Shown here piece after piece: positions 6,200-22,031 of a DNA stretch of 28,013 bases. The notes beneath the pieces are model-generated. The model saw only the letters and a program-made list of their open reading frames with translations, did no database searches and was not told the DNA's origin. Positions within the stretch are counted from its first letter, which is position 1. Every line of letters begins with the position of its first letter. This DNA is from a virus (taxonomy: Duplodnaviria; Caudoviricetes). A program made the translations under genes and the position numbers. The stretch covers positions 1 through 28,013 of IMG/VR virus record IMGVR_UViG_3300049844_000005. The stretch is one strand, 5' to 3'.

Positions 6200-6489
6200 A
6201 ACACGATCACGCACTATTAAAAGAAATGATCATAGAAGCAGCGTATAAGTCTGTAATAGAACTTATAAAGGTACTTGCTGATGAAATCATATCTGATGAC
6301 ACACTAGATGATATATCTGCTGATAAAATGAGGAATGCTGTTTTAGCAAAGAAAACTGCTTTAGACGATGCGTTCTATATTTTAGCAAAGATAGAGACTG
6401 AGAAAAATATGCTTGAAGGTAATCAAAAAGAAGAAGTAGATGAAGTCAAATTCCAATCATTCGCAGAAAAAAGAAGTAAAGGAAGATAA
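6196..6489 (+). CDS. Putative terminase small subunit
   Basis: 97-aa helical protein immediately upstream of and overlapping TerL; assignment is positional. Confidence 0.45.
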   Translation: MKHDHALLKEMIIEAAYKSVIELIKVLADEIISDDTLDDISADKMRNAVLAKKTALDDAFYILAKIETEKNMLEGNQKEEVDEVKFQSFAEKRSKGR

Positions 6490-8707
6490 TAGTCTATTTA
6501 GAATTATTAATAAAATAGATTCGAAAGACATTGATAGGTTAAACAAGAAGAAAGAATGGAAGTATGGGTATAACCCAGAGTTCGATGTTGTTGTTATATC
6601 TAAAGATGGTACTATTGGAGAAGTGTACGAAATACAGGGTCTTCACATAGCACTACCTTCAGTACCAAAAACAGTTTACAAAAGAGATAAGAAAAAAGAA
6701 GAGCAGTATTGGAGTCCATTCGAATACCCAAAAGAACTTCAAAAAATAACATCTGTATTTCAATGGAATGAATATCCAAACGAATTCAAGAACAAGTACG
6801 TTGAATATATAGAGAATGAATTTGACAGAAGAGAAGAAGGGTTTTGGTTCTACAATAATGGTACTCCAACTTACGTAACTGGTACGCATTACATGTACTT
6901 GCAATGGACTAAGATTGACGTTGGTCATGCTGAATTCAGAGAAGCTAATAGAGTATTCTTTTTGTTTTGGGAGGCTTGTGTAGCTGATGAAAGAAGTTAT
7001 GGAATGTGTTATTTAAAGAATAGACGTTCTGGTTTCTCATTTATGTCTTCTGCTGAATTAGTTAATACCGCTACACTTGCGCGAGATAGTCGTTTAGGTA
7101 TTCTATCGAAGACTGGTAATGATGCTAAAAAAATGTTTACTGATAAAGTAGTTCCTATATCTGGTAACTACCCTTTCTTTTTCAAACCAATCATGGACGG
7201 TATGGATAAGCCTAAAACAGAATTAGCTTATCGTGTACCAGCATCTAAAATCACAAAGAACAATATGTCGTCTATGAAAGATGATGTTGATGGATTAGAT
7301 ACAACTATTGACTGGAAGAATACTGCTGATAACAGTTATGATGGGGAAAAATTACTAAGACTTATACATGACGAGAGTGGTAAGTGGGAGGTTCCAAATA
7401 ATATCCTTAACAACTGGAGGGTTACTAAAACCTGTTTACGTTTAGGTAGAAGAATTATTGGTAAGTGTATGATGGGTTCTACATCAAACTCTATATCAAA
7501 AGGAGGAGGGAATTACAAATCATTATACAACGATTCTGACGTTACAAAAAGAAATGCAAATGGACAAACACTTAGCGGTCTTTACGCTTTATTCATTCCT
7601 ATGGAGTGGAATTTCGAGGGATACATTGATATATATGGTCAACCAGTATTCAGGACTCCTGAGAAACCTGCTAGGGATATTCAGGGAGGCTTTATTTACA
7701 CAGGTGTAATAGATTATTGGGAGAACGAAGTTAATGCCTTAAAAAACAATTCTGACGCTTTAAACGAATTCTATAGACAGTTTCCAAGAACAGAGAGTCA
7801 TGCATTTAGAGATGAAGCTAAAAACTCTTTATATGATTTGGCTAAGATATACGAACAGATTGATTATAATGATGGATTAGAGATAAACAGAATTGTAAAT
7901 ACAGGGAAGTTTGCTTGGAAGAATGGTATTAAAGATAGTGAGGTTATATGGCTTCCTAGTAGAGATGGTAACTTTAAAGTTACTTGGTTTCCTAATAAGG
8001 ATATGGCTAATAAGATAGAAATAAAGAATGGTAAAAAATATCCAGGGAATACACATGTTGGTGCTTTTGGATGTGATACGTACGATATATCTGGAGTTGT
8101 TGGAGGTGGAGGATCTAAGGGTTCGCTACACGGACTGACAAAGTTTAATATGGATGATGCTCCAAGTAACTTTTTCTTTTTAGAGTATATAGCAAGACCA
8201 AGGACATCTGAAGAATTTTACGAGGATTGTTTGATGGCTTGTGTATTTTACGGTATGCCAATTCTTATTGAGAACAACAAGGTTGGTCAGTTAAGATATT
8301 TCTATAATAGAGGATACACTGGTTTTTGTTTAAGAAGACCTGATAAGCATAAGAATGATTTGAGTCAATCAGAAAAAGAGTTAGGCGGTATACCATCATC
8401 TACTCAAGTAATTGAGTTGCACGCAAATGCATTAGAAGCGTATATAGATCAGCATGTCGGTATTGATTATAGTGGTCAATTTAGAGAGGCTGGTAAGATG
8501 GGTAACATGTTCTTTAACAGAACTTTATTAGACTGGGCTAATTATGACATAAGTAATAGAACTAAGTTTGATGCTACCATCAGCAGTGGTTTTGCTATAA
8601 TGGCTAATCAAACATATGTATCTAAGCCCATTAGAAATAATAAAGAAATAATGTTTAATTTTGCAAGATATTCCAATAAAGGATTACAAAGCGAATTATT
8701 AAGATAA
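6440..8707 (+). CDS. terL: Terminase large subunit
   Basis: Walker A-like KNRRSGFS, Walker B LIHDESGK, motif III-like MGSTSN, nuclease acidic motifs GCDTYD and FDATISSG; precedes the portal. Confidence 0.92.
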   Translation: MKSNSNHSQKKEVKEDNSLFRIINKIDSKDIDRLNKKKEWKYGYNPEFDVVVISKDGTIGEVYEIQGLHIALPSVPKTVYKRDKKKEEQYWSPFEYPKELQKITSVFQWNEYPNEFKNKYVEYIENEFDRREEGFWFYNNGTPTYVTGTHYMYLQWTKIDVGHAEFREANRVFFLFWEACVADERSYGMCYLKNRRSGFSFMSSAELVNTATLARDSRLGILSKTGNDAKKMFTDKVVPISGNYPFFFKPIMDGMDKPKTELAYRVPASKITKNNMSSMKDDVDGLDTTIDWKNTADNSYDGEKLLRLIHDESGKWEVPNNILNNWRVTKTCLRLGRRIIGKCMMGSTSNSISKGGGNYKSLYNDSDVTKRNANGQTLSGLYALFIPMEWNFEGYIDIYGQPVFRTPEKPARDIQGGFIYTGVIDYWENEVNALKNNSDALNEFYRQFPRTESHAFRDEAKNSLYDLAKIYEQIDYNDGLEINRIVNTGKFAWKNGIKDSEVIWLPSRDGNFKVTWFPNKDMANKIEIKNGKKYPGNTHVGAFGCDTYDISGVVGGGGSKGSLHGLTKFNMDDAPSNFFFLEYIARPRTSEEFYEDCLMACVFYGMPILIENNKVGQLRYFYNRGYTGFCLRRPDKHKNDLSQSEKELGGIPSSTQVIELHANALEAYIDQHVGIDYSGQFREAGKMGNMFFNRTLLDWANYDISNRTKFDATISSGFAIMANQTYVSKPIRNNKEIMFNFARYSNKGLQSELLR

Positions 8708-8708
8708 T

Positions 8709-11132
8709 ATGACTCAAGATTTCTCATTACCTAATGTATATTTTCCAGATCAATTAGCTGACGACGCTACTAAACTAAGTAAAGAGTATGGTAGAAGTGT
8801 TGGTCACTCTATTCAATCAGAATGGTTTAGAAAAACATCTAATAGTGGTTCTAGGTTTTATACCAATAGAGACCATTTTCACAAGTTAAGATTATACGCA
8901 AGAGGAGAACAGTCAGTTCAAAAATACAAGAAAGAAATGAGTGTCAATGGCGACATATCTTATCTTAATGTAGATTGGACTCCAGTTCCTATTATTCCTA
9001 AATTTGTTGACATCGTGGTAAATGGAATGTCAAACAGGCAATACGAAGTTAAAGCCGAGGCTATAGATAGTATGTCTTCAATCAAAAAAGGAGCTTACAA
9101 GTATGAACTTGAGAAAGCTATGGTTGGAAAAACTATATTAAAAGATGCTAAAGAATTGCTTGGTGTAGATATGTATCCAATACCAGAAGAAGAGATGCCT
9201 TCTAATAAGCAAGAGCTAGATCTTCATATGGAATTTTATAAAGATGAAATTGAAGTTGTAGAAGAAAAAGCAATCGATAACGTATTCAAATTAAATAATT
9301 ACGATTTAATAAAAAGAAGAATAGACGAAGATGCTACAGTTCTTGGATTGTCTGCTGCTAAACATTCTTTTGATACTCACAACGGAATTAACATTGAATA
9401 TTGCGATCCAGCAAATATGGTTTGGTCTCCAACAGAAGATCCGACATTTCAAGACTGTTATTACTTTGGAGAAGTTAAAAACGTAAACATTACAGAGCTT
9501 AAAAAATTAAATCCTAGTCTTAGTCAAGAAGATATTAAAGAGATAGCTAAGTTAGCTTCTAAATGGGATTCTTATCAAAATATACAAGGTGGTAATGTTG
9601 CTGAAGGAAACTTAAACAACAATAGCGCTACACTATTATTCTTTGCTTTTAAAACTGATATGAATATCGTTTACAAAAAGAAAAAGAATGGTAATGGTGG
9701 AGAAAAAGTTATAAAGAGAGACGATTCATTTCAAGGACCAAAAACAGAAGATGCTCAATTTGAAAAACTATCTAAAAGAATAGATGTTTGGTTTGAAGGA
9801 GTATTGGTTTTAGGTACTAATCATTTATTGAAATGGGAGGTTATGAAGAACATGGTTAGACCTAAATCTTCTATATCAAAAGTTTACCCTCCTTACGTAT
9901 TGTCTGCACCTAGAATGTATAGAGGTTCTATTGATTCGTTAGTAAAAAGAATGATTCCTTTTGCTGATCAAATTCAATTGACACACTTAAAATTACAGCA
10001 AGTTATATCTAGTTTAAAACCTGATGGTGTATACTTAGATATAGATGGATTAAACTCTATTAACTTGGGTAACGGAATGACCTATACTCCAGAAGAAGCT
10101 TTAAATTTATACTTCCAAACAGGTAGTGTAATTGGTAGAAGTATGACTGAAGATGGAGAATTCAATAATGGTAAAATACCTGTTCAAGAATTAACAGCTT
10201 CTGGTGCAAATGCTAAGATACAGTCTCTTATAGGAATGTATAATCAATACTTAGGTATGATTAGAGCTGTAACTGGGTTGAACGAAGCTAGAGATGGTAG
10301 TATGCCAGATGAAAATAGTTTAGTTGGAACACAGAAATTAGCAGCGTTAAATTCAAATACAGCTACCAGACACATTCTTCAAAGTGGTATTTTTACGACT
10401 AGAAGATTAGCTGAATGCATTTGCTATAGAATGTCTGACGTATTAGAATATTCTGATATGAAAGAAGACTTTGCTAATATGATTGGTGGAAGTTCTATGG
10501 ATACTATAGAGAAGATTAAAGATTTACATTTATACAACTTTGGTATTTACATTGATTTAATGCCTGATGAGGAAGAAACCCAAATGCTTAATCAAAATAT
10601 ACAAGCTGCATTAGCGTCTGGAAAGATTGACATCGATGATGCTATTGATATCAGAAACGTTAAAAATGTTAAGATAGCTTCTCAATTATTGAAGGTTAGA
10701 AAGAAAAAGAAAGAAGAGAAAGACTTAGATACTCAAAAACAAAATTACGAAGCTCAAGCTCAATCTCAAGCTAAACTAGCTGAATCTACTTCTCAATCTA
10801 AAATGCAATTAATACAAGCTACTTCTACATCTGATGTACAATTAGAGCAATTGAAACATCAAAATGAAATGGAGAAAATGAAAGCTGAATACCAAATGAA
10901 AGCTGAATTGATAAAGCTTCAAGAAGGTATGAAAGGTGAGATTAAACAAAGTGAGATGTCTACTCTTGAAAGAAAAGAACAAGAGCGTGAAGATAGAAAA
11001 GACAAGAGAACTAAGTTACAAGCTACACAACAATCGAAAATGATTAAACAAAGATCTAAAGACGAGGACGCTATAGACTTTGAAGAAGAAGATGATTTAA
11101 TGGGTATTGACGACTTATTTAGTGGTATGTAA
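8709..11132 (+). CDS. Portal protein
   Basis: 807 aa, lies between TerL and scaffold/MCP. Has a PIIPKFVDIVVNG segment and a long C-terminal coiled coil (barrel), as in crAss-like/P22-like portals. Confidence 0.85.
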   Translation: MTQDFSLPNVYFPDQLADDATKLSKEYGRSVGHSIQSEWFRKTSNSGSRFYTNRDHFHKLRLYARGEQSVQKYKKEMSVNGDISYLNVDWTPVPIIPKFVDIVVNGMSNRQYEVKAEAIDSMSSIKKGAYKYELEKAMVGKTILKDAKELLGVDMYPIPEEEMPSNKQELDLHMEFYKDEIEVVEEKAIDNVFKLNNYDLIKRRIDEDATVLGLSAAKHSFDTHNGINIEYCDPANMVWSPTEDPTFQDCYYFGEVKNVNITELKKLNPSLSQEDIKEIAKLASKWDSYQNIQGGNVAEGNLNNNSATLLFFAFKTDMNIVYKKKKNGNGGEKVIKRDDSFQGPKTEDAQFEKLSKRIDVWFEGVLVLGTNHLLKWEVMKNMVRPKSSISKVYPPYVLSAPRMYRGSIDSLVKRMIPFADQIQLTHLKLQQVISSLKPDGVYLDIDGLNSINLGNGMTYTPEEALNLYFQTGSVIGRSMTEDGEFNNGKIPVQELTASGANAKIQSLIGMYNQYLGMIRAVTGLNEARDGSMPDENSLVGTQKLAALNSNTATRHILQSGIFTTRRLAECICYRMSDVLEYSDMKEDFANMIGGSSMDTIEKIKDLHLYNFGIYIDLMPDEEETQMLNQNIQAALASGKIDIDDAIDIRNVKNVKIASQLLKVRKKKKEEKDLDTQKQNYEAQAQSQAKLAESTSQSKMQLIQATSTSDVQLEQLKHQNEMEKMKAEYQMKAELIKLQEGMKGEIKQSEMSTLERKEQEREDRKDKRTKLQATQQSKMIKQRSKDEDAIDFEEEDDLMGIDDLFSGM

Positions 11133-12308: not shown

Positions 12309-13676
12309 ATGGCTCAAGCTGTAAATTTTTCAACTAACGCTATCACTGGTGGAGCTCAATTAACTCCAGCTCCAGTTAAAGCAACATTATCTACTAACTA
12401 TGTAGGTACATTTGACTTTTTGTCACATGAATTACCAGACCTTTACGAAAAAGAATTCGAAAGATTTGGTAACCGTTCTGTCGCATCTTTCTTACGTTTA
12501 GTAGGTGCTGAAATACCTTCTACTTCTGATTTGATCAAATGGAGTGAGCAAGGTCGTCTTCACGTATTTGGAACTGCTACTAAAGCAACTGCATCTACAA
12601 TTACTTTCTCTGCGGCTCACAACGTACGTTTGAACCAAACTGTAGTTATTAATGATACTTCTAACGGAGTTACTATTAAAGCTTTAGTTACTGGTATCGA
12701 TGTAGATGGTGTAACTGTAACTGTTGCTCCTTATAGCGCTGCTAACTTAGCTGCTTTGAGTACTACTTCAGGAGCTTTGAAAGTATTCGTTTATGGTTCT
12801 GAGTTCAAAAAAGGAACTAACGGTATGTCTGGTTCTTTGGAAGCTAAATCTGACATCTTAGAAACTAACCCAATTATCATCAAAGATAAGTACGAGGTTA
12901 ATGGTTCTGATATGGCTCAAGTTGGTTGGATTGAAGTTACAACTGAAAATGGTGCTTCAGGATACTTATGGTATTTGAAATCTGAGCACGAAACTCGTTT
13001 ACGTTTCGAAGATTACTTAGAAATGTCTATGGTTGAAGGTGAGCCTGCTGCTGTAGGTTCTGCTGTAGCTGCTGCTGGTTACAAAGGTACTAAAGGTTTG
13101 TTCTACGAAATCGCTAATAGAGGTAACGTTGGAACAGGTGCTATCACTGAAAGAGCTGACTTAGAAAACATCATCAAGGTGTTAGATAAAGAAGGTGCTA
13201 TTCAAGAGAATGTATTATTCGTTAACAGAAAAACATCTTTCGAGATTGACACTGTATTAGCTGCTCAAAACAACTTCGGTTCAAGTGGAGCTTCTTACGG
13301 TTTGTTTGACAACGAACAAGACATGGCATTGAATCTTGGTTTTAAAGGATTTAACTTAGGTTATGATTTCTACAAAACTGACTGGAAATACCTTAACGAT
13401 GCTACAACTAGAGGTTCTATCTCTGACATCGATGGTGTATTGGTTCCTGCTGGAACATTGACAGTTTACGACCAAGTTCTTGGTAAAAACGCTAAACGTC
13501 CGTTCTTACACACACGTTACAGAAAATCTGAAACAGAAGATAGAAAATACAAATCATGGATCGTTGGATCTGCTGGTGGTGCTTCTAACTCTGAATTAGA
13601 TGCGATGCAAGTTAACTTCTTATCTGAAAGAGCTTTGGTTGTTTTAGGTGCTAACAACTTCATGTTGTTGAAATAG
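12309..13676 (+). CDS. Major capsid protein
   Basis: 455 aa after the scaffold. Marked high-expression codon bias (TTC, AAC, TAC, ATC, CGT). Followed by a strong terminator. Confidence 0.88.
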   Translation: MAQAVNFSTNAITGGAQLTPAPVKATLSTNYVGTFDFLSHELPDLYEKEFERFGNRSVASFLRLVGAEIPSTSDLIKWSEQGRLHVFGTATKATASTITFSAAHNVRLNQTVVINDTSNGVTIKALVTGIDVDGVTVTVAPYSAANLAALSTTSGALKVFVYGSEFKKGTNGMSGSLEAKSDILETNPIIIKDKYEVNGSDMAQVGWIEVTTENGASGYLWYLKSEHETRLRFEDYLEMSMVEGEPAAVGSAVAAAGYKGTKGLFYEIANRGNVGTGAITERADLENIIKVLDKEGAIQENVLFVNRKTSFEIDTVLAAQNNFGSSGASYGLFDNEQDMALNLGFKGFNLGYDFYKTDWKYLNDATTRGSISDIDGVLVPAGTLTVYDQVLGKNAKRPFLHTRYRKSETEDRKYKSWIVGSAGGASNSELDAMQVNFLSERALVVLGANNFMLLK

Positions 13677-13749: not shown

Positions 13750-13818
13750 ACAAATTTTGATTTTTTCTCTCATTTTTTTTAAACCACTAATTAGTTAATT
13801 CTTTTAGTGGTTTTTTTT
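13750..13818 (+). ncRNA. Candidate ~70-nt small RNA
   Basis: Bounded by a promoter element and the hairpin AAACCACTAA-N13-TTAGTGGTTT with a T8 run; contains no ORF. Confidence 0.4.
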
Positions 13819-13837
13819 GTTATATAAAAATAAGTTG

Positions 13838-13847
13838 TATATTTGCA
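13838..13847 (+). promoter_or_regulatory. Promoter of the leader-tRNA operon
   Basis: TATATTTGCA, with TTG (13817-13819) 18 nt upstream as a possible -33 element; the expected start site falls at about ATG 13850. Confidence 0.75.
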
Positions 13848-13849
13848 CA

Positions 13850-13921
13850 ATGAAAAATACAAAAAACAATAGTCTACGTCACCCGCAACAAGATAATCTC
13901 TTGGGTGGAATTGGTGTGTAG
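13850..13921 (+). CDS. Attenuator leader peptide MKNTKNNSLRHPQQDNLLGGIGV (23 aa, not in ORF track)
   Basis: Codons 9-14 (13874-13891) are CTA CGT CAC CCG CAA CAA, cognate to all five downstream tRNAs. Confidence 0.8.
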   Translation: MKNTKNNSLRHPQQDNLLGGIGV

Positions 13922-13974
13922 TATTGTTATAAAAATATATTTGAACCAAAGCCATCCATATCGGGTGGCTTTTT
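13879..13974 (+). promoter_or_regulatory. Ribosome-dependent transcription attenuator
   Basis: 1:2 = TCACC/CAAGA (13879-83, 13889-93) with TCTTG-GGTGG (13899-908). 2:3 = TGGGTGG-aa-TTGGT (13902-15) with ACCAA-ag-CCATCCA (13945-58). 3:4 = terminator. Confidence 0.75.
13948..13974 (+). terminator. Intrinsic terminator immediately upstream of the tRNA array
   Basis: AAAGCCATCC-atatc-GGGTGGCTTT-TT, ending 4 nt before tRNA-Pro. Confidence 0.85.
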
Positions 13975-13978
13975 ATTT

Positions 13979-14051
13979 CGCGTAGTGACAAAATTGGTTA
14001 CGTGCCCGCCTTGGAAGCGGGAGACTGTAGGTTCGAGTCCTGCCTATGCGA
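13979..14051 (+). tRNA. tRNA-Pro(TGG)
   Basis: Acceptor CGCGTAG/CTATGCG, anticodon arm CCCGC-CTTGGAA-GCGGG, T arm GTAGG-TTCGAGT-CCTGC, A73; weak D stem; CCA not encoded. Confidence 0.9.
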
Positions 14052-14056
14052 CAAAA

Positions 14057-14128
14057 TACAGTATGATGCAATGGTTAGCATACGAGATTTTGACTCTCGC
14101 TATCTAGGTTCGAGTCCTGGTACTGTAA
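14057..14128 (+). tRNA. tRNA-Gln(TTG)
   Basis: Acceptor TACAGTA/TACTGTA, D stem ATGC/GCAT, anticodon arm CGAGA-TTTTGAC-TCTCG, T arm CTAGG-TTCGAGT-CCTGG. Confidence 0.92.
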
Positions 14129-14133
14129 CAAAT

Positions 14134-14207
14134 GGTGTTATTGCGCTTAACGGCAAGGCGGTTGGACTGTGAATCCAATTATATGAGTTCGAATCTCATA
14201 TAACACC
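14134..14207 (+). tRNA. tRNA-His(GTG)
   Basis: 8-bp acceptor GGTGTTAT/ATAACACC including G-1:C73, anticodon arm TTGGA-CTGTGAA-TCCAA, T arm ATGAG-TTCGAAT-CTCAT. Confidence 0.92.
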
Positions 14208-14210
14208 CAA

Positions 14211-14285
14211 TTTAGTATAGTTCAATGGATAGAACAACAAGCTACGAACTTGTAAATGGGAGTTCGAGTCTCTCTACTAAAACCA
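14211..14285 (+). tRNA. tRNA-Arg(ACG)
   Basis: Acceptor TTTAGTA/TACTAAA, D stem GTTC/GAAC, anticodon arm ACAAG-CTACGAA-CTTGT, encoded CCA. Confidence 0.92.
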
Positions 14286-14287
14286 AT

Positions 14288-14369
14288 ACCGAAATGACGT
14301 AAAAACGAATTGGCAGAGTATCCAGTCTTAGAAACTGGGGTTTTATGGGTTCGAGTCCCATTTTCGGTA
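14288..14369 (+). tRNA. tRNA-Leu(TAG), atypical (short variable region, enlarged D region)
   Basis: Acceptor ACCGAAA/TTTCGGT, anticodon arm CCAGT-CTTAGAA-ACTGG, T arm ATGGG-TTCGAGT-CCCAT, A73. Confidence 0.8.
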
Positions 14370-14386
14370 CAAATAAAATAAATTCG

Positions 14387-21524: not shown

Positions 21525-22031
21525 ATGGCAACAAGTTCAACATATTACACAGACAGTAGCAGTTTTAACACTGCTACGTCTGTGTACACAAATCAAGAGT
21601 TAACAATAAAAGCTCCTGATGGGTATTACTCAATAGGAGGTCTTTATAGAAGACAACTCTTTGGAAACTTGCAAGAGTTGGTAAGTTGTAGTGGAGCTCC
21701 ATTACCTGTTAATTGCGTTGTATCAGAATGGTCAGAATGGTCTTCATGCGTAGATGGATCTAAAACAAGAACAAGAACTGTTATAACTCCTGCTGAAAAC
21801 GGAGGTACGGCTTGTCCTGCTTTAACAGAGACTCAATCATGTTCTTCTGAAGAGGCTTGTACTAGTTACACACACATAGCAAGTAGAGACTCTTTAATAA
21901 CATATACAGCTTGTGATGGTACACCAAAATCGATAAGTACTTCTAGATTTAGTAGTTATACTTTCTGTGCGATAACTGGAAGTCAATCTGGTGGAACTGG
22001 TACTTGGTTTAATAATGGATTCTGTAGTTAA
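21525..22031 (+). CDS. Cys-rich virion accessory protein with thrombospondin type-1 (TSP1/spondin-like) domain
   Basis: PVNCVVSEWSEWSSC...TRTRTVITPAENGGTACPALTETQSC. Confidence 0.8.
   Translation: MATSSTYYTDSSSFNTATSVYTNQELTIKAPDGYYSIGGLYRRQLFGNLQELVSCSGAPLPVNCVVSEWSEWSSCVDGSKTRTRTVITPAENGGTACPALTETQSCSSEEACTSYTHIASRDSLITYTACDGTPKSISTSRFSSYTFCAITGSQSGGTGTWFNNGFCS

Follow-up and report, generated by a model that had tools for sequence, protein, structure and literature searches.

Why should a phage carry transfer RNA (tRNA) genes for every amino acid with C-starting codons and no others, each with an A immediately 3' of the anticodon? This question is raised by a locus at 13979-14369 (+ strand) of a viral sequence of 28,013 bases, referred to here as the window, which is the entire IMG/VR virus contig record IMGVR_UViG_3300049844_000005 (CheckV completeness estimate of 46%). 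ARAGORN detected exactly five tRNA genes in the 28 kb window (i.e. Pro, Gln, His, Arg and a gene with a TAG anticodon that reads CTN), located in the interval between the gene of a structural protein and the structural gene that follows. Loop reading showed that all five combine G36 with A37 and that the set covers each of the five amino acids with C-starting codons, exactly as described in an initial annotation of this DNA. Nearly all bacteria require the methylation of G37 by TrmD, which produces m1G37 (i.e. 1-methylguanosine at position 37) and serves as a target for antibiotics. TrmD substrates have G36 and a methylatable G37; the first of these was present in 5/5 genes of the array and the second in 0/5. 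As follows from the target base of the enzyme, A37 tRNAs cannot be TrmD substrates, and the five genes parallel the TrmD class but cannot belong to it because of A37 in all five. A hand calculation based on the 7 G36 anticodons among ~31 in host-family genomes gave a chance of ~1e-4 that five random distinct anticodons would all have G36. Our preferred reading, to which we assign a probability of roughly 0.4, is that this set of tRNAs stands in for the host G36-G37 (i.e. m1G37) class in a demand-gated manner and would function without TrmD methylation. This reading was chosen because one idea covers both a minimal set that is exactly that class and the changed position 37.

The bacterial counterparts were examined in Bacteroidota genomes found by a 16S probe scan, with tRNAs listed using RF00005 and loops read using ARAGORN. 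Three genomes were fully tabulated, and all of their G36 tRNA sequences had G37 while all other tRNAs had A37: Wocania ichthyoenteri (Flavobacteriaceae; 8/8 and 28/28, respectively), Polaribacter ponticola (Flavobacteriaceae; 7/7 and 26/26) and a Bacteroidaceae genome (10/10 and 30/30). Each of these genomes contained one TrmD gene. Pattern tallies permitting R at position 37 were obtained for evenly drawn Flavobacteriaceae genomes (51-101 per tally). The Pro-TGG pattern matched 92/101 genomes, with G37 in all 150 sequences among the matches listed, of 154, and the Gln-TTG pattern matched 80/101 genomes (G37 in 81/81). Matches for Arg were obtained in 40/51 genomes (38 ACG and 17 TCG, all G37) and for Leu in 51/51 genomes, with G37 in all 52 TAG and both GAG sequences and A37 in all 54 TAA sequences. 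Coverage was thin for His-GTG, with matches in 15/51 genomes and G37 in 15/15. A phylum-wide Gln pattern proved too family-specific, matching 5/41 genomes, and these matches also had G37. No host-family G36 tRNA with A37 was observed in the three full tables or in any Flavobacteriaceae tally. In Bacteroidota, the G36 class is the G37 class and, because every host-family G36 tRNA examined carries G37, the phage array is the mirror image of this whole class with A37. The initial annotation had put forward, as a point to be checked, that Gln, His and Arg-ACG tRNAs of Bacteroidota have G37 and had allowed that the host counterparts might already carry A37; the former was borne out by the three genomes and the family tallies, and the A37 alternative was not. 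This outcome was contrary to the expectation drawn from E. coli. The passage of a review that deals with Salmonella describes the readers of CAN codons as lacking m1G37 (PMC13191261), whereas His and Gln tRNAs of Bacteroidota have G37, which makes the class mirrored by the phage set a larger one.

Related arrays were collected from viral-contig scans and three named phage records, and position 37 was tabulated using ARAGORN for the window plus L001-L018. A37 was present in 49 of 54 distinct G36 tRNA sequences, extending to related phages what the initial annotation had seen in the window; T37 was present in three (a His subgroup) and G37 in two, one being Arg-ACG in L006/L011 and the other a second 'Pro' of doubtful status in L018. 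Positions 32 and 38 varied freely in the phage tRNAs while A37 persisted. The tRNA-His genes of L005, L007, L008, L009, L010, L013 and L015 have the loop TT-GTG-TC, and a pyrimidine at position 37 is very unusual in a functional tRNA. The first scan for relatives had fixed A37 in tRNA-Pro; a rescan used the D-arm alone with position 37 free and returned 37 matches, of which 15 were tRNA-Pro, all with A37 (15/15). A quasi-random viral sample contained 26 distinct tRNA-Pro(TGG) sequences, 21 with G37 and 5 with A37. A37 is a minority state in viral tRNA-Pro, yet is not unique to this lineage. Cellulophaga phage phi19:1 and the contig G108 (CheckV 100%) are complete genomes of other lineages, and the only tRNAs that they carry are these five, grouped at a single site. 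In G107 (73% complete and of the window's own phage type), the array likewise represents the only tRNAs.

These distributions bear on an explanation with no special role for A37, according to which the block would be an old, inherited rare-codon module for AT-rich hosts and A37 the product of AT mutation pressure and relaxed constraint, with an attenuator that simply matches supply to demand. The five-tRNA block occurs in phages of more than one family (Assiduviridae phi19:1, Pervagoviridae Calle_1, Panino), so that A37 in 'all five' may go back to a single event in an ancestor. The tRNAs of the phages are rich in AT and distant from host tRNAs, and a host origin of the phage tRNA-Pro was rejected, the D-arm motif having 0 matches in 185,579 species genomes. 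The 5/26 background in viral tRNA-Pro, the T37 of His and the G37 of one Arg lineage suggest loose constraint, and the leader system described below spans all tRNA classes. This explanation fails, however, to account for a sole complement of tRNAs in two complete genomes that is exactly the G37 class of the host, or for the retention of A37 in 49/54 sequences alongside free variation at positions 32 and 38. The presence of G37 without exception in the host G36 tRNAs examined indicates that position 37 is functionally important beside G36, and the window uses the codons concerned less than stand-in hosts do (see below). Neutral inheritance of A37 is regarded by us as a serious but somewhat doubtful explanation, and an attenuator with no function beyond the matching of supply to demand as similarly doubtful.

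The region upstream of the array was examined for signals controlling its expression (Table 1). A sigma-70 promoter scan of this leader region found nothing; the boxes at 13816-13845 conform to what we take to be the Bacteroidota-type promoter consensus. The TAtaTTTG box ends 4 nucleotides (nt) before an ATG (window 13838-13852), this spacing is conserved in relatives and the arrangement TTGTATATTTRCA-NN-ATG is also found before their leaders. Because the promoter-like box ends 4 nt before the ATG, the leader mRNA may be leaderless or nearly so. The ATG opens a short open reading frame (ORF) that is kept in L014, L005, L008, L009 and L015, where the LRHPQQ run is unchanged and all amino-acid differences lie elsewhere. 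This run is specified by six codons in a row that are decoded by Leu-TAG, Arg-ACG, His-GTG, Pro-TGG and Gln-TTG, with one or two codons for each tRNA of the array. Codons starting with C (CNN) make up 9.4% of the 8381 ORF codons in the window and, with the codon usage of the window, at least six cognate codons running in 22 random codons were obtained with P = 1.5e-5 (200,000 draws).

Folding of the leader RNA produced two mutually exclusive arrangements. For RNA extending to 13962 and free of ribosomes, the predicted 1:2 fold had a stability of -19.9 kcal/mol and left the 5' arm of the terminator unpaired (0/10 nt). The 2:3 fold was predicted at -18.9 kcal/mol, with 8/10 nt of this arm paired upstream, and the 3:4 terminator at -14 to -16 kcal/mol. 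Antiterminator pairing was predicted, from different sequences, in 9/11 leaders examined; the fold parse of these 11 leaders did not show it in the leaders of L001 and of Calle block C. Matches to Rfam leader families were below the gathering scores (Phe_leader, 25 bits versus 55; Trp_leader, 18 versus 41) and both rested on the terminator hairpin. The sequence and structural features of a leader-peptide attenuator were found, i.e. an upstream ORF with a run of cognate codons, an intrinsic terminator and a predicted antiterminator and anti-antiterminator that exclude each other. As modelled, the leader is a textbook four-segment attenuator written in the cognate codons of the tRNAs behind it. 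The predicted sequence of events is that the promoter fires and the leader is transcribed and translated. With fast reading of CTA-CGT-CAC-CCG-CAA-CAA, the ribosome would reach the stop codon and cover segment 2, the terminator at 13948-13978 would form and no tRNA would be produced. With slow decoding of these six codons, the stalled ribosome would free segment 2, the antiterminator would form and transcription would proceed into Pro-Gln-His-Arg-Leu. Such stalling-driven read-through, which we infer from the folds and the codon content, would continue until tRNA supply is restored. In L007, L010 and L013, the same promoter and a Pro-Gln-His-Arg array are present with the leader ORF replaced by an unrelated stretch of ~75 nt that has no ORF and has its own terminator. 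This replacement lies ~90 nt upstream of the tRNA-Pro at 1498 (after orientation) and may be a different sensor or a decayed leader.

Comparison of the relatives showed that the leader codons vary along with the tRNA content of the block behind them. The leaders of Panino (QRLHQELEQP), L477 (RLHLEQLEQP) and Calle_1 and phi38:1 (RLLHQEPLEQLRLP) precede blocks consisting of the same five tRNAs plus Glu-TTC and Leu-TAA, and these leaders add GAA/GAG and TTA codons matching the added tRNAs. In L006 and L011, a leader containing ...LSLHSYRPLQQ... precedes a block of Pro, Tyr, Gln, His, Arg and Ser; the GTG start of this leader was read by eye and it lies outside the codon and fold analyses. Codon-matched leaders were also found for other blocks. 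The second block of Calle_1 (Ala, Lys, Ile, Gly, Met, Asp, Thr, Val and Arg-TCT) has the leader MKTIMNIATDIRTKGVK..., its third block (i.e. (Tyr), Ser, Ser, Asn, Trp and Phe) has the leader ...YNNFSWYSNCSFSSYN... and a further block of Panino (Ala, Lys, Ile, Gly and others) has the leader MRAATGIAIIGRTKDK.... Because blocks that are not G36 own codon-matched leaders and the codons track block content, the leader is, as judged from these sequences, a putative general sensor of codon supply (i.e. codon-specific speed) that gates the tRNAs reading its codons. The initial annotation had viewed the leader as the sensor for an insult specific to the G36-G37 class; the Glu and Leu-TAA additions and the separate codon-matched leaders speak against this specificity.

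The leaders of other blocks were located at L003 1116-1205 (Calle_1), on the minus strand of L406 from 819 (Calle_1), at L002 3416-3490 (Panino) and in L472, L477 and L491. Behind each of them lies a terminator with a putative alternative antiterminator fold; IMNIATDIRTKGVK precedes Ala-Lys-Ile-Gly-Met-Asp-Thr-Val-Arg(TCT) and NNFSWYSNCSFSSYN precedes Tyr-Ser-Ser-Asn-Trp-Phe. The promoter plus an ATGAA motif was found at 110 loci (L462-L571). A short ORF (<=45 amino acids) with no tRNA called within 200 nt was present at 52 of these; many of the 52 come from one dataset, and they may be either further elements of the leader type or just small genes of the ordinary kind.

One member of the array differs from the others in structure. 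The Rfam gathering score for RF00005 is 29 bits, a cut-off passed by the Pro, Gln, His and Arg genes (53.8-64.8 bits) and failed by the TAG gene (27.6 bits). The boundaries of this gene were reassigned to 14288-14369, in place of the 14304-14370 called by ARAGORN, on the basis of a 7-base-pair (bp) acceptor stem (14288-14294 / 14362-14368) that is preserved by compensatory changes across relatives. The RNAalifold consensus of eight homologues (window, L014, L018, L005, L007, L008, L003 and L004) contained covarying acceptor, anticodon and T stems and no D stem. The D region is an A-rich stretch of 27 nt containing a TGG, and the variable region is short (~5-6 nt). A bacterial type II tRNA-Leu has a long variable arm, as do the Leu-TAG genes of the host family (83 nt), and the TAG gene fails this criterion. 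As its acceptor, anticodon and T stems covary, the gene is likely to be a functional but atypical tRNA. This form is conserved in relatives (L003, about 2880-2990; L004, L005, L007, L008, L014 and L018), where ARAGORN misses or truncates it, and the Calle_1 record labels its own copy 'tRNA-OTHER Undet'. L001, L002, L012 and L016 have a canonical class I tRNA of 74-75 nt with a TAG anticodon instead, and neither form resembles the bacterial type II tRNA-Leu.

Codon demand was considered as a reason for the choice of tRNAs. The structural genes of the window, to which this comparison is confined, contain 94 CNN codons per 1000 as compared to 113-124 in two host-family genomes that stand in for the true host; the corresponding values were 8.6 versus 20-22 for His and 3.5 versus 10-16 for CGN. 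Compensation for codon usage was rejected because the window uses CNN codons less than the stand-in hosts, such that high phage demand does not explain the tRNA set. If anything, the low CNN usage is in keeping with CNN decoding as a point of weakness in infected cells. A reason for avoiding TrmD dependence is provided by E. coli, for which the portions of PMC8643618 concerned with prolyl-tRNA synthetase (ProRS) describe impaired ProRS charging and growth upon loss of m1G37.

The initial annotation had named depletion of S-adenosylmethionine (SAM) and an anticodon nuclease as insults that the array might withstand, and genes for either were sought. The early gene region lies outside the window, which represents ~46% of the genome, and searches for early genes were therefore made in relatives. 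A phage-encoded TrmD was absent from the two complete phages Calle_1 and phi19:1. An early ORF of 116 amino acids in Panino, CDS0017 (L404 2841-3191; annotated 'SAM-dependent methyltransferase'), scored 27 bits against the S-AdoMet lyase family PF23780, for which the cut-off is 28, and 26.8 bits against phrog_2226. Neither family was matched in Calle_1, phi19:1 or G107, PF23780 was not matched in G106 and phrog_2226 was not matched in G108. A SAM lyase as a conserved companion of the array was rejected on the basis of this lone sub-threshold match. An annotation of 'tRNA methyltransferase' for a Panino protein of 1829 amino acids had no Pfam match and the name was treated as unreliable. No tRNA nuclease gene was identified in the window.

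The last of these results bears on an explanation in terms of escape from a tRNA-targeting activity, whereby a host anticodon nuclease or a phage shut-off factor would recognise the G36-G37 loop and spare the phage tRNAs; the phage set would then replace the cleaved class and the leader would sense the resulting stalls. In a side-by-side comparison, the loops of the array departed from those of the host at position 37 in 5/5 types and also at positions 32 and/or 38. In PMC10264068, the anticodon loops of phage tRNAs are reported to bear substitutions at sites cleaved by nucleases. The T37 variants of His would fit a rule of 'anything but G', and low CNN usage would fit CNN decoding as the weak point. 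A nuclease with specificity for G36-G37 loops is not known to us, and the window yielded no nuclease gene. Positions 32 and 38 drift in other phage tRNA classes too, so that loop divergence is not special to this array, and the Arg-ACG of L006/L011 retains G37. Sparing of the phage tRNAs from such an activity is considered unlikely, and the same applies to a leader that senses stalls caused by tRNA cleavage.

Replacement of the host m1G37 class by a set independent of TrmD remains our preferred reading. For A37, we infer an adaptive role in which methylation by TrmD is neither possible nor needed, so that the phage tRNAs would remain functional when m1G37 becomes limiting. Such limitation could arise from a shortage of SAM or from a burst of new tRNA that outruns TrmD. 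Several observations weigh against this reading. The blocks of relatives include Glu-TTC (C36) and Leu-TAA (A36), such that the block is not exclusive to G36, and codon-matched leaders for other tRNA blocks show that the regulatory design is not specific to the m1G37 class. The leaders of L012 and L016 lack an Arg codon although their arrays hold Arg-ACG. Position 37 has exceptions, namely T37 in three distinct His sequences and G37 in the Arg-ACG of the L006/L011 lineage, and the 5/26 viral tRNA-Pro with A37 suggest that A37 may be more widespread among phages and perhaps neutral. The SAM-lyase-like ORF was found in Panino only (1 of 6 relatives' records) and below threshold. In addition, the E. 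coli ProRS prefers m1G37 according to the sections of PMC8643618 on this enzyme, raising the question of how well a tRNA-Pro with A37 is charged. The claim of the initial annotation that the array replaces the whole TrmD class stands insofar as the array mirrors the G36-G37 class of the host tables in a form that cannot be methylated; it does not carry over to all relatives as a block restricted to G36. A bolder version combines these elements into a codon-addressed, self-throttling supply of tRNA in phages of Flavobacteriaceae, in which every block would be gated by a leader peptide composed of its own codons and the core block, the sole one retained by minimal genomes, would bypass TrmD, reflecting a contest over m1G37 or the G36-G37 loop during infection. 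We hold this version to be rather unlikely; if true, the contest over m1G37 could involve SAM depletion, an overloaded TrmD or a class-specific nuclease.

Parallels with known systems are partial. Van den Berg et al. (eLife 2023; PMC10264068), in the parts of the article dealing with anticodon loops, describe phage tRNA loops that are systematically unlike those of the host isoacceptors with the anticodon kept. Unlike the tRNAs of those sections, the array has a class-wide change from G37 to A37 that matches the substrate rule of a single essential methyltransferase, is under codon-matched attenuation and has no known cognate nuclease. The attenuators of the trp, his, phe and leu operons (Rfam Trp_leader and Phe_leader) similarly consist of a short ORF with regulatory codons, 1:2, 2:3 and 3:4 hairpins and a terminator. 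Unlike those of amino-acid operons, the attenuator described here is phage-borne and regulates tRNAs rather than biosynthetic enzymes, its codon run mixes five or more amino acids and several units of leader plus tRNA block occur per genome in relatives. Studies of TrmD and m1G37 (PMC8643618, PMC8384417 and PMC13191261) concern, in the portions that treat codon reading, the same class defined by G36 and position 37 (codons CCN, CUN and CGN); their subject is the loss of methylation from tRNAs with G37, whereas in this array G37 itself has been replaced. Vibriophage tRNA arrays, as covered by a passage of the review PMC13191261, also replace a failing host tRNA pool. In contrast to this array, most vibriophage tRNA-Leu species carry m1G37, i.e. 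they keep G37 and rely on the TrmD of the host, and that passage makes no mention of leader-peptide control. A literature search, with subscription journals outside its scope, found no paper on class-wide replacement of G37 by A37 or on leader-peptide control of tRNA genes; one match to 'G37A' referred to an inserted base named G37a and not to a substitution.

If the preferred reading is true, a natural set of tRNAs reading all C-starting codons without m1G37 would show how far the requirement for this modification can be bypassed and would be a ready tool for testing what m1G37 serves (i.e. reading frame, charging or speed). The gating of tRNA genes by leader peptides written in the codons that those tRNAs read would make the question of why phages carry tRNAs testable, because the phage itself would report, via attenuation, which codons are limiting during infection. 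Cultured relatives on non-pathogenic marine hosts exist (i.e. phi19:1, phi38:1, Calle_1 and Panino).

Table 1. Features of the leader, the tRNA array and the surrounding genes (window coordinates).
Feature	Position	Strand	Details
Putative Bacteroidota-type promoter	13816-13845	+	TTTG 13816-13819, TAtaTTTG 13838-13845
Leader ORF	13850-13921	+	23 codons, MKNTKNNSLRHPQQDNLLGGIGV, stop TAG; peptide MKNTKNNS-LRHPQQ-DNLLGGIGV
Regulatory codon run	13874-13891	+	CTA CGT CAC CCG CAA CAA, codons 9-14
Predicted segment 1:2 hairpin (anti-antiterminator)	13865-13928	+	regulatory codons pair with TTGGGTGG...GTGTGTAG near the ORF end
Predicted segment 2:3 antiterminator	13902-13958	+	with the 5' portion of the ORF covered, the TTGGGTGG... 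stretch pairs with CCAAAGCCATCCA
Intrinsic terminator	13948-13978	+	stem 13948-13972, 10-bp stem, 5-nt loop, T tract; adjoins tRNA-Pro
tRNA-Pro(TGG)	13979-14052	+	loop CT-TGG-AA, A37 at 14015, G72/A73 acceptor end; RF00005 55.1 bits
tRNA-Gln(TTG)	14057-14129	+	loop TT-TTG-AC, A37 at 14093; RF00005 61.3 bits
tRNA-His(GTG) with G-1	14135-14208	+	loop CT-GTG-AA, A37 at 14172; RF00005 53.8 bits
tRNA-Arg(ACG)	14211-14285	+	loop CT-ACG-AA, A37 at 14247; RF00005 64.8 bits
Atypical TAG tRNA (reads CTN)	14288-14369	+	82 nt, loop CT-TAG-AA, A37 at 14332, A73; RF00005 27.6 bits
Large terminase	6440-8707	+	
Portal	8709-11132	+	
Major structural protein	12309-13676	+	
Tail fibre gene		+	lysis/structural module
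Holin and endolysin genes		+	lysis/structural module
Further virion proteins			structural module

All large ORFs of the window are on the + strand and form a lysis and structural module. The protein encoded at 12309-13676 has 51-57% identity to proteins of Maribacter phage Panino and the Flavobacterium phage 'elemo' isolates, and Cellulophaga phage records also match (<60%). Because of these matches, the host of this phage is very likely a member of the Flavobacteriaceae. Tenacibaculum phage pT24 was considered as an independent test among phages of this family and was uninformative, its similarity consisting of the promoter before an ordinary coding sequence, and there was no G36 tRNA among its tRNAs. 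The latter comprise a tRNA with a CTA anticodon of the amber-suppressor type (L408 1501-1575; labelled Pyl by ARAGORN) and two tRNA-Ile(TAT). Within the virion module of the window, an ORF of 168 amino acids at 21525-22031 encodes a thrombospondin type 1 / spondin-like TSP1 domain (PF19028, 50.9 bits), a domain seldom found in the structural gene clusters of phages.

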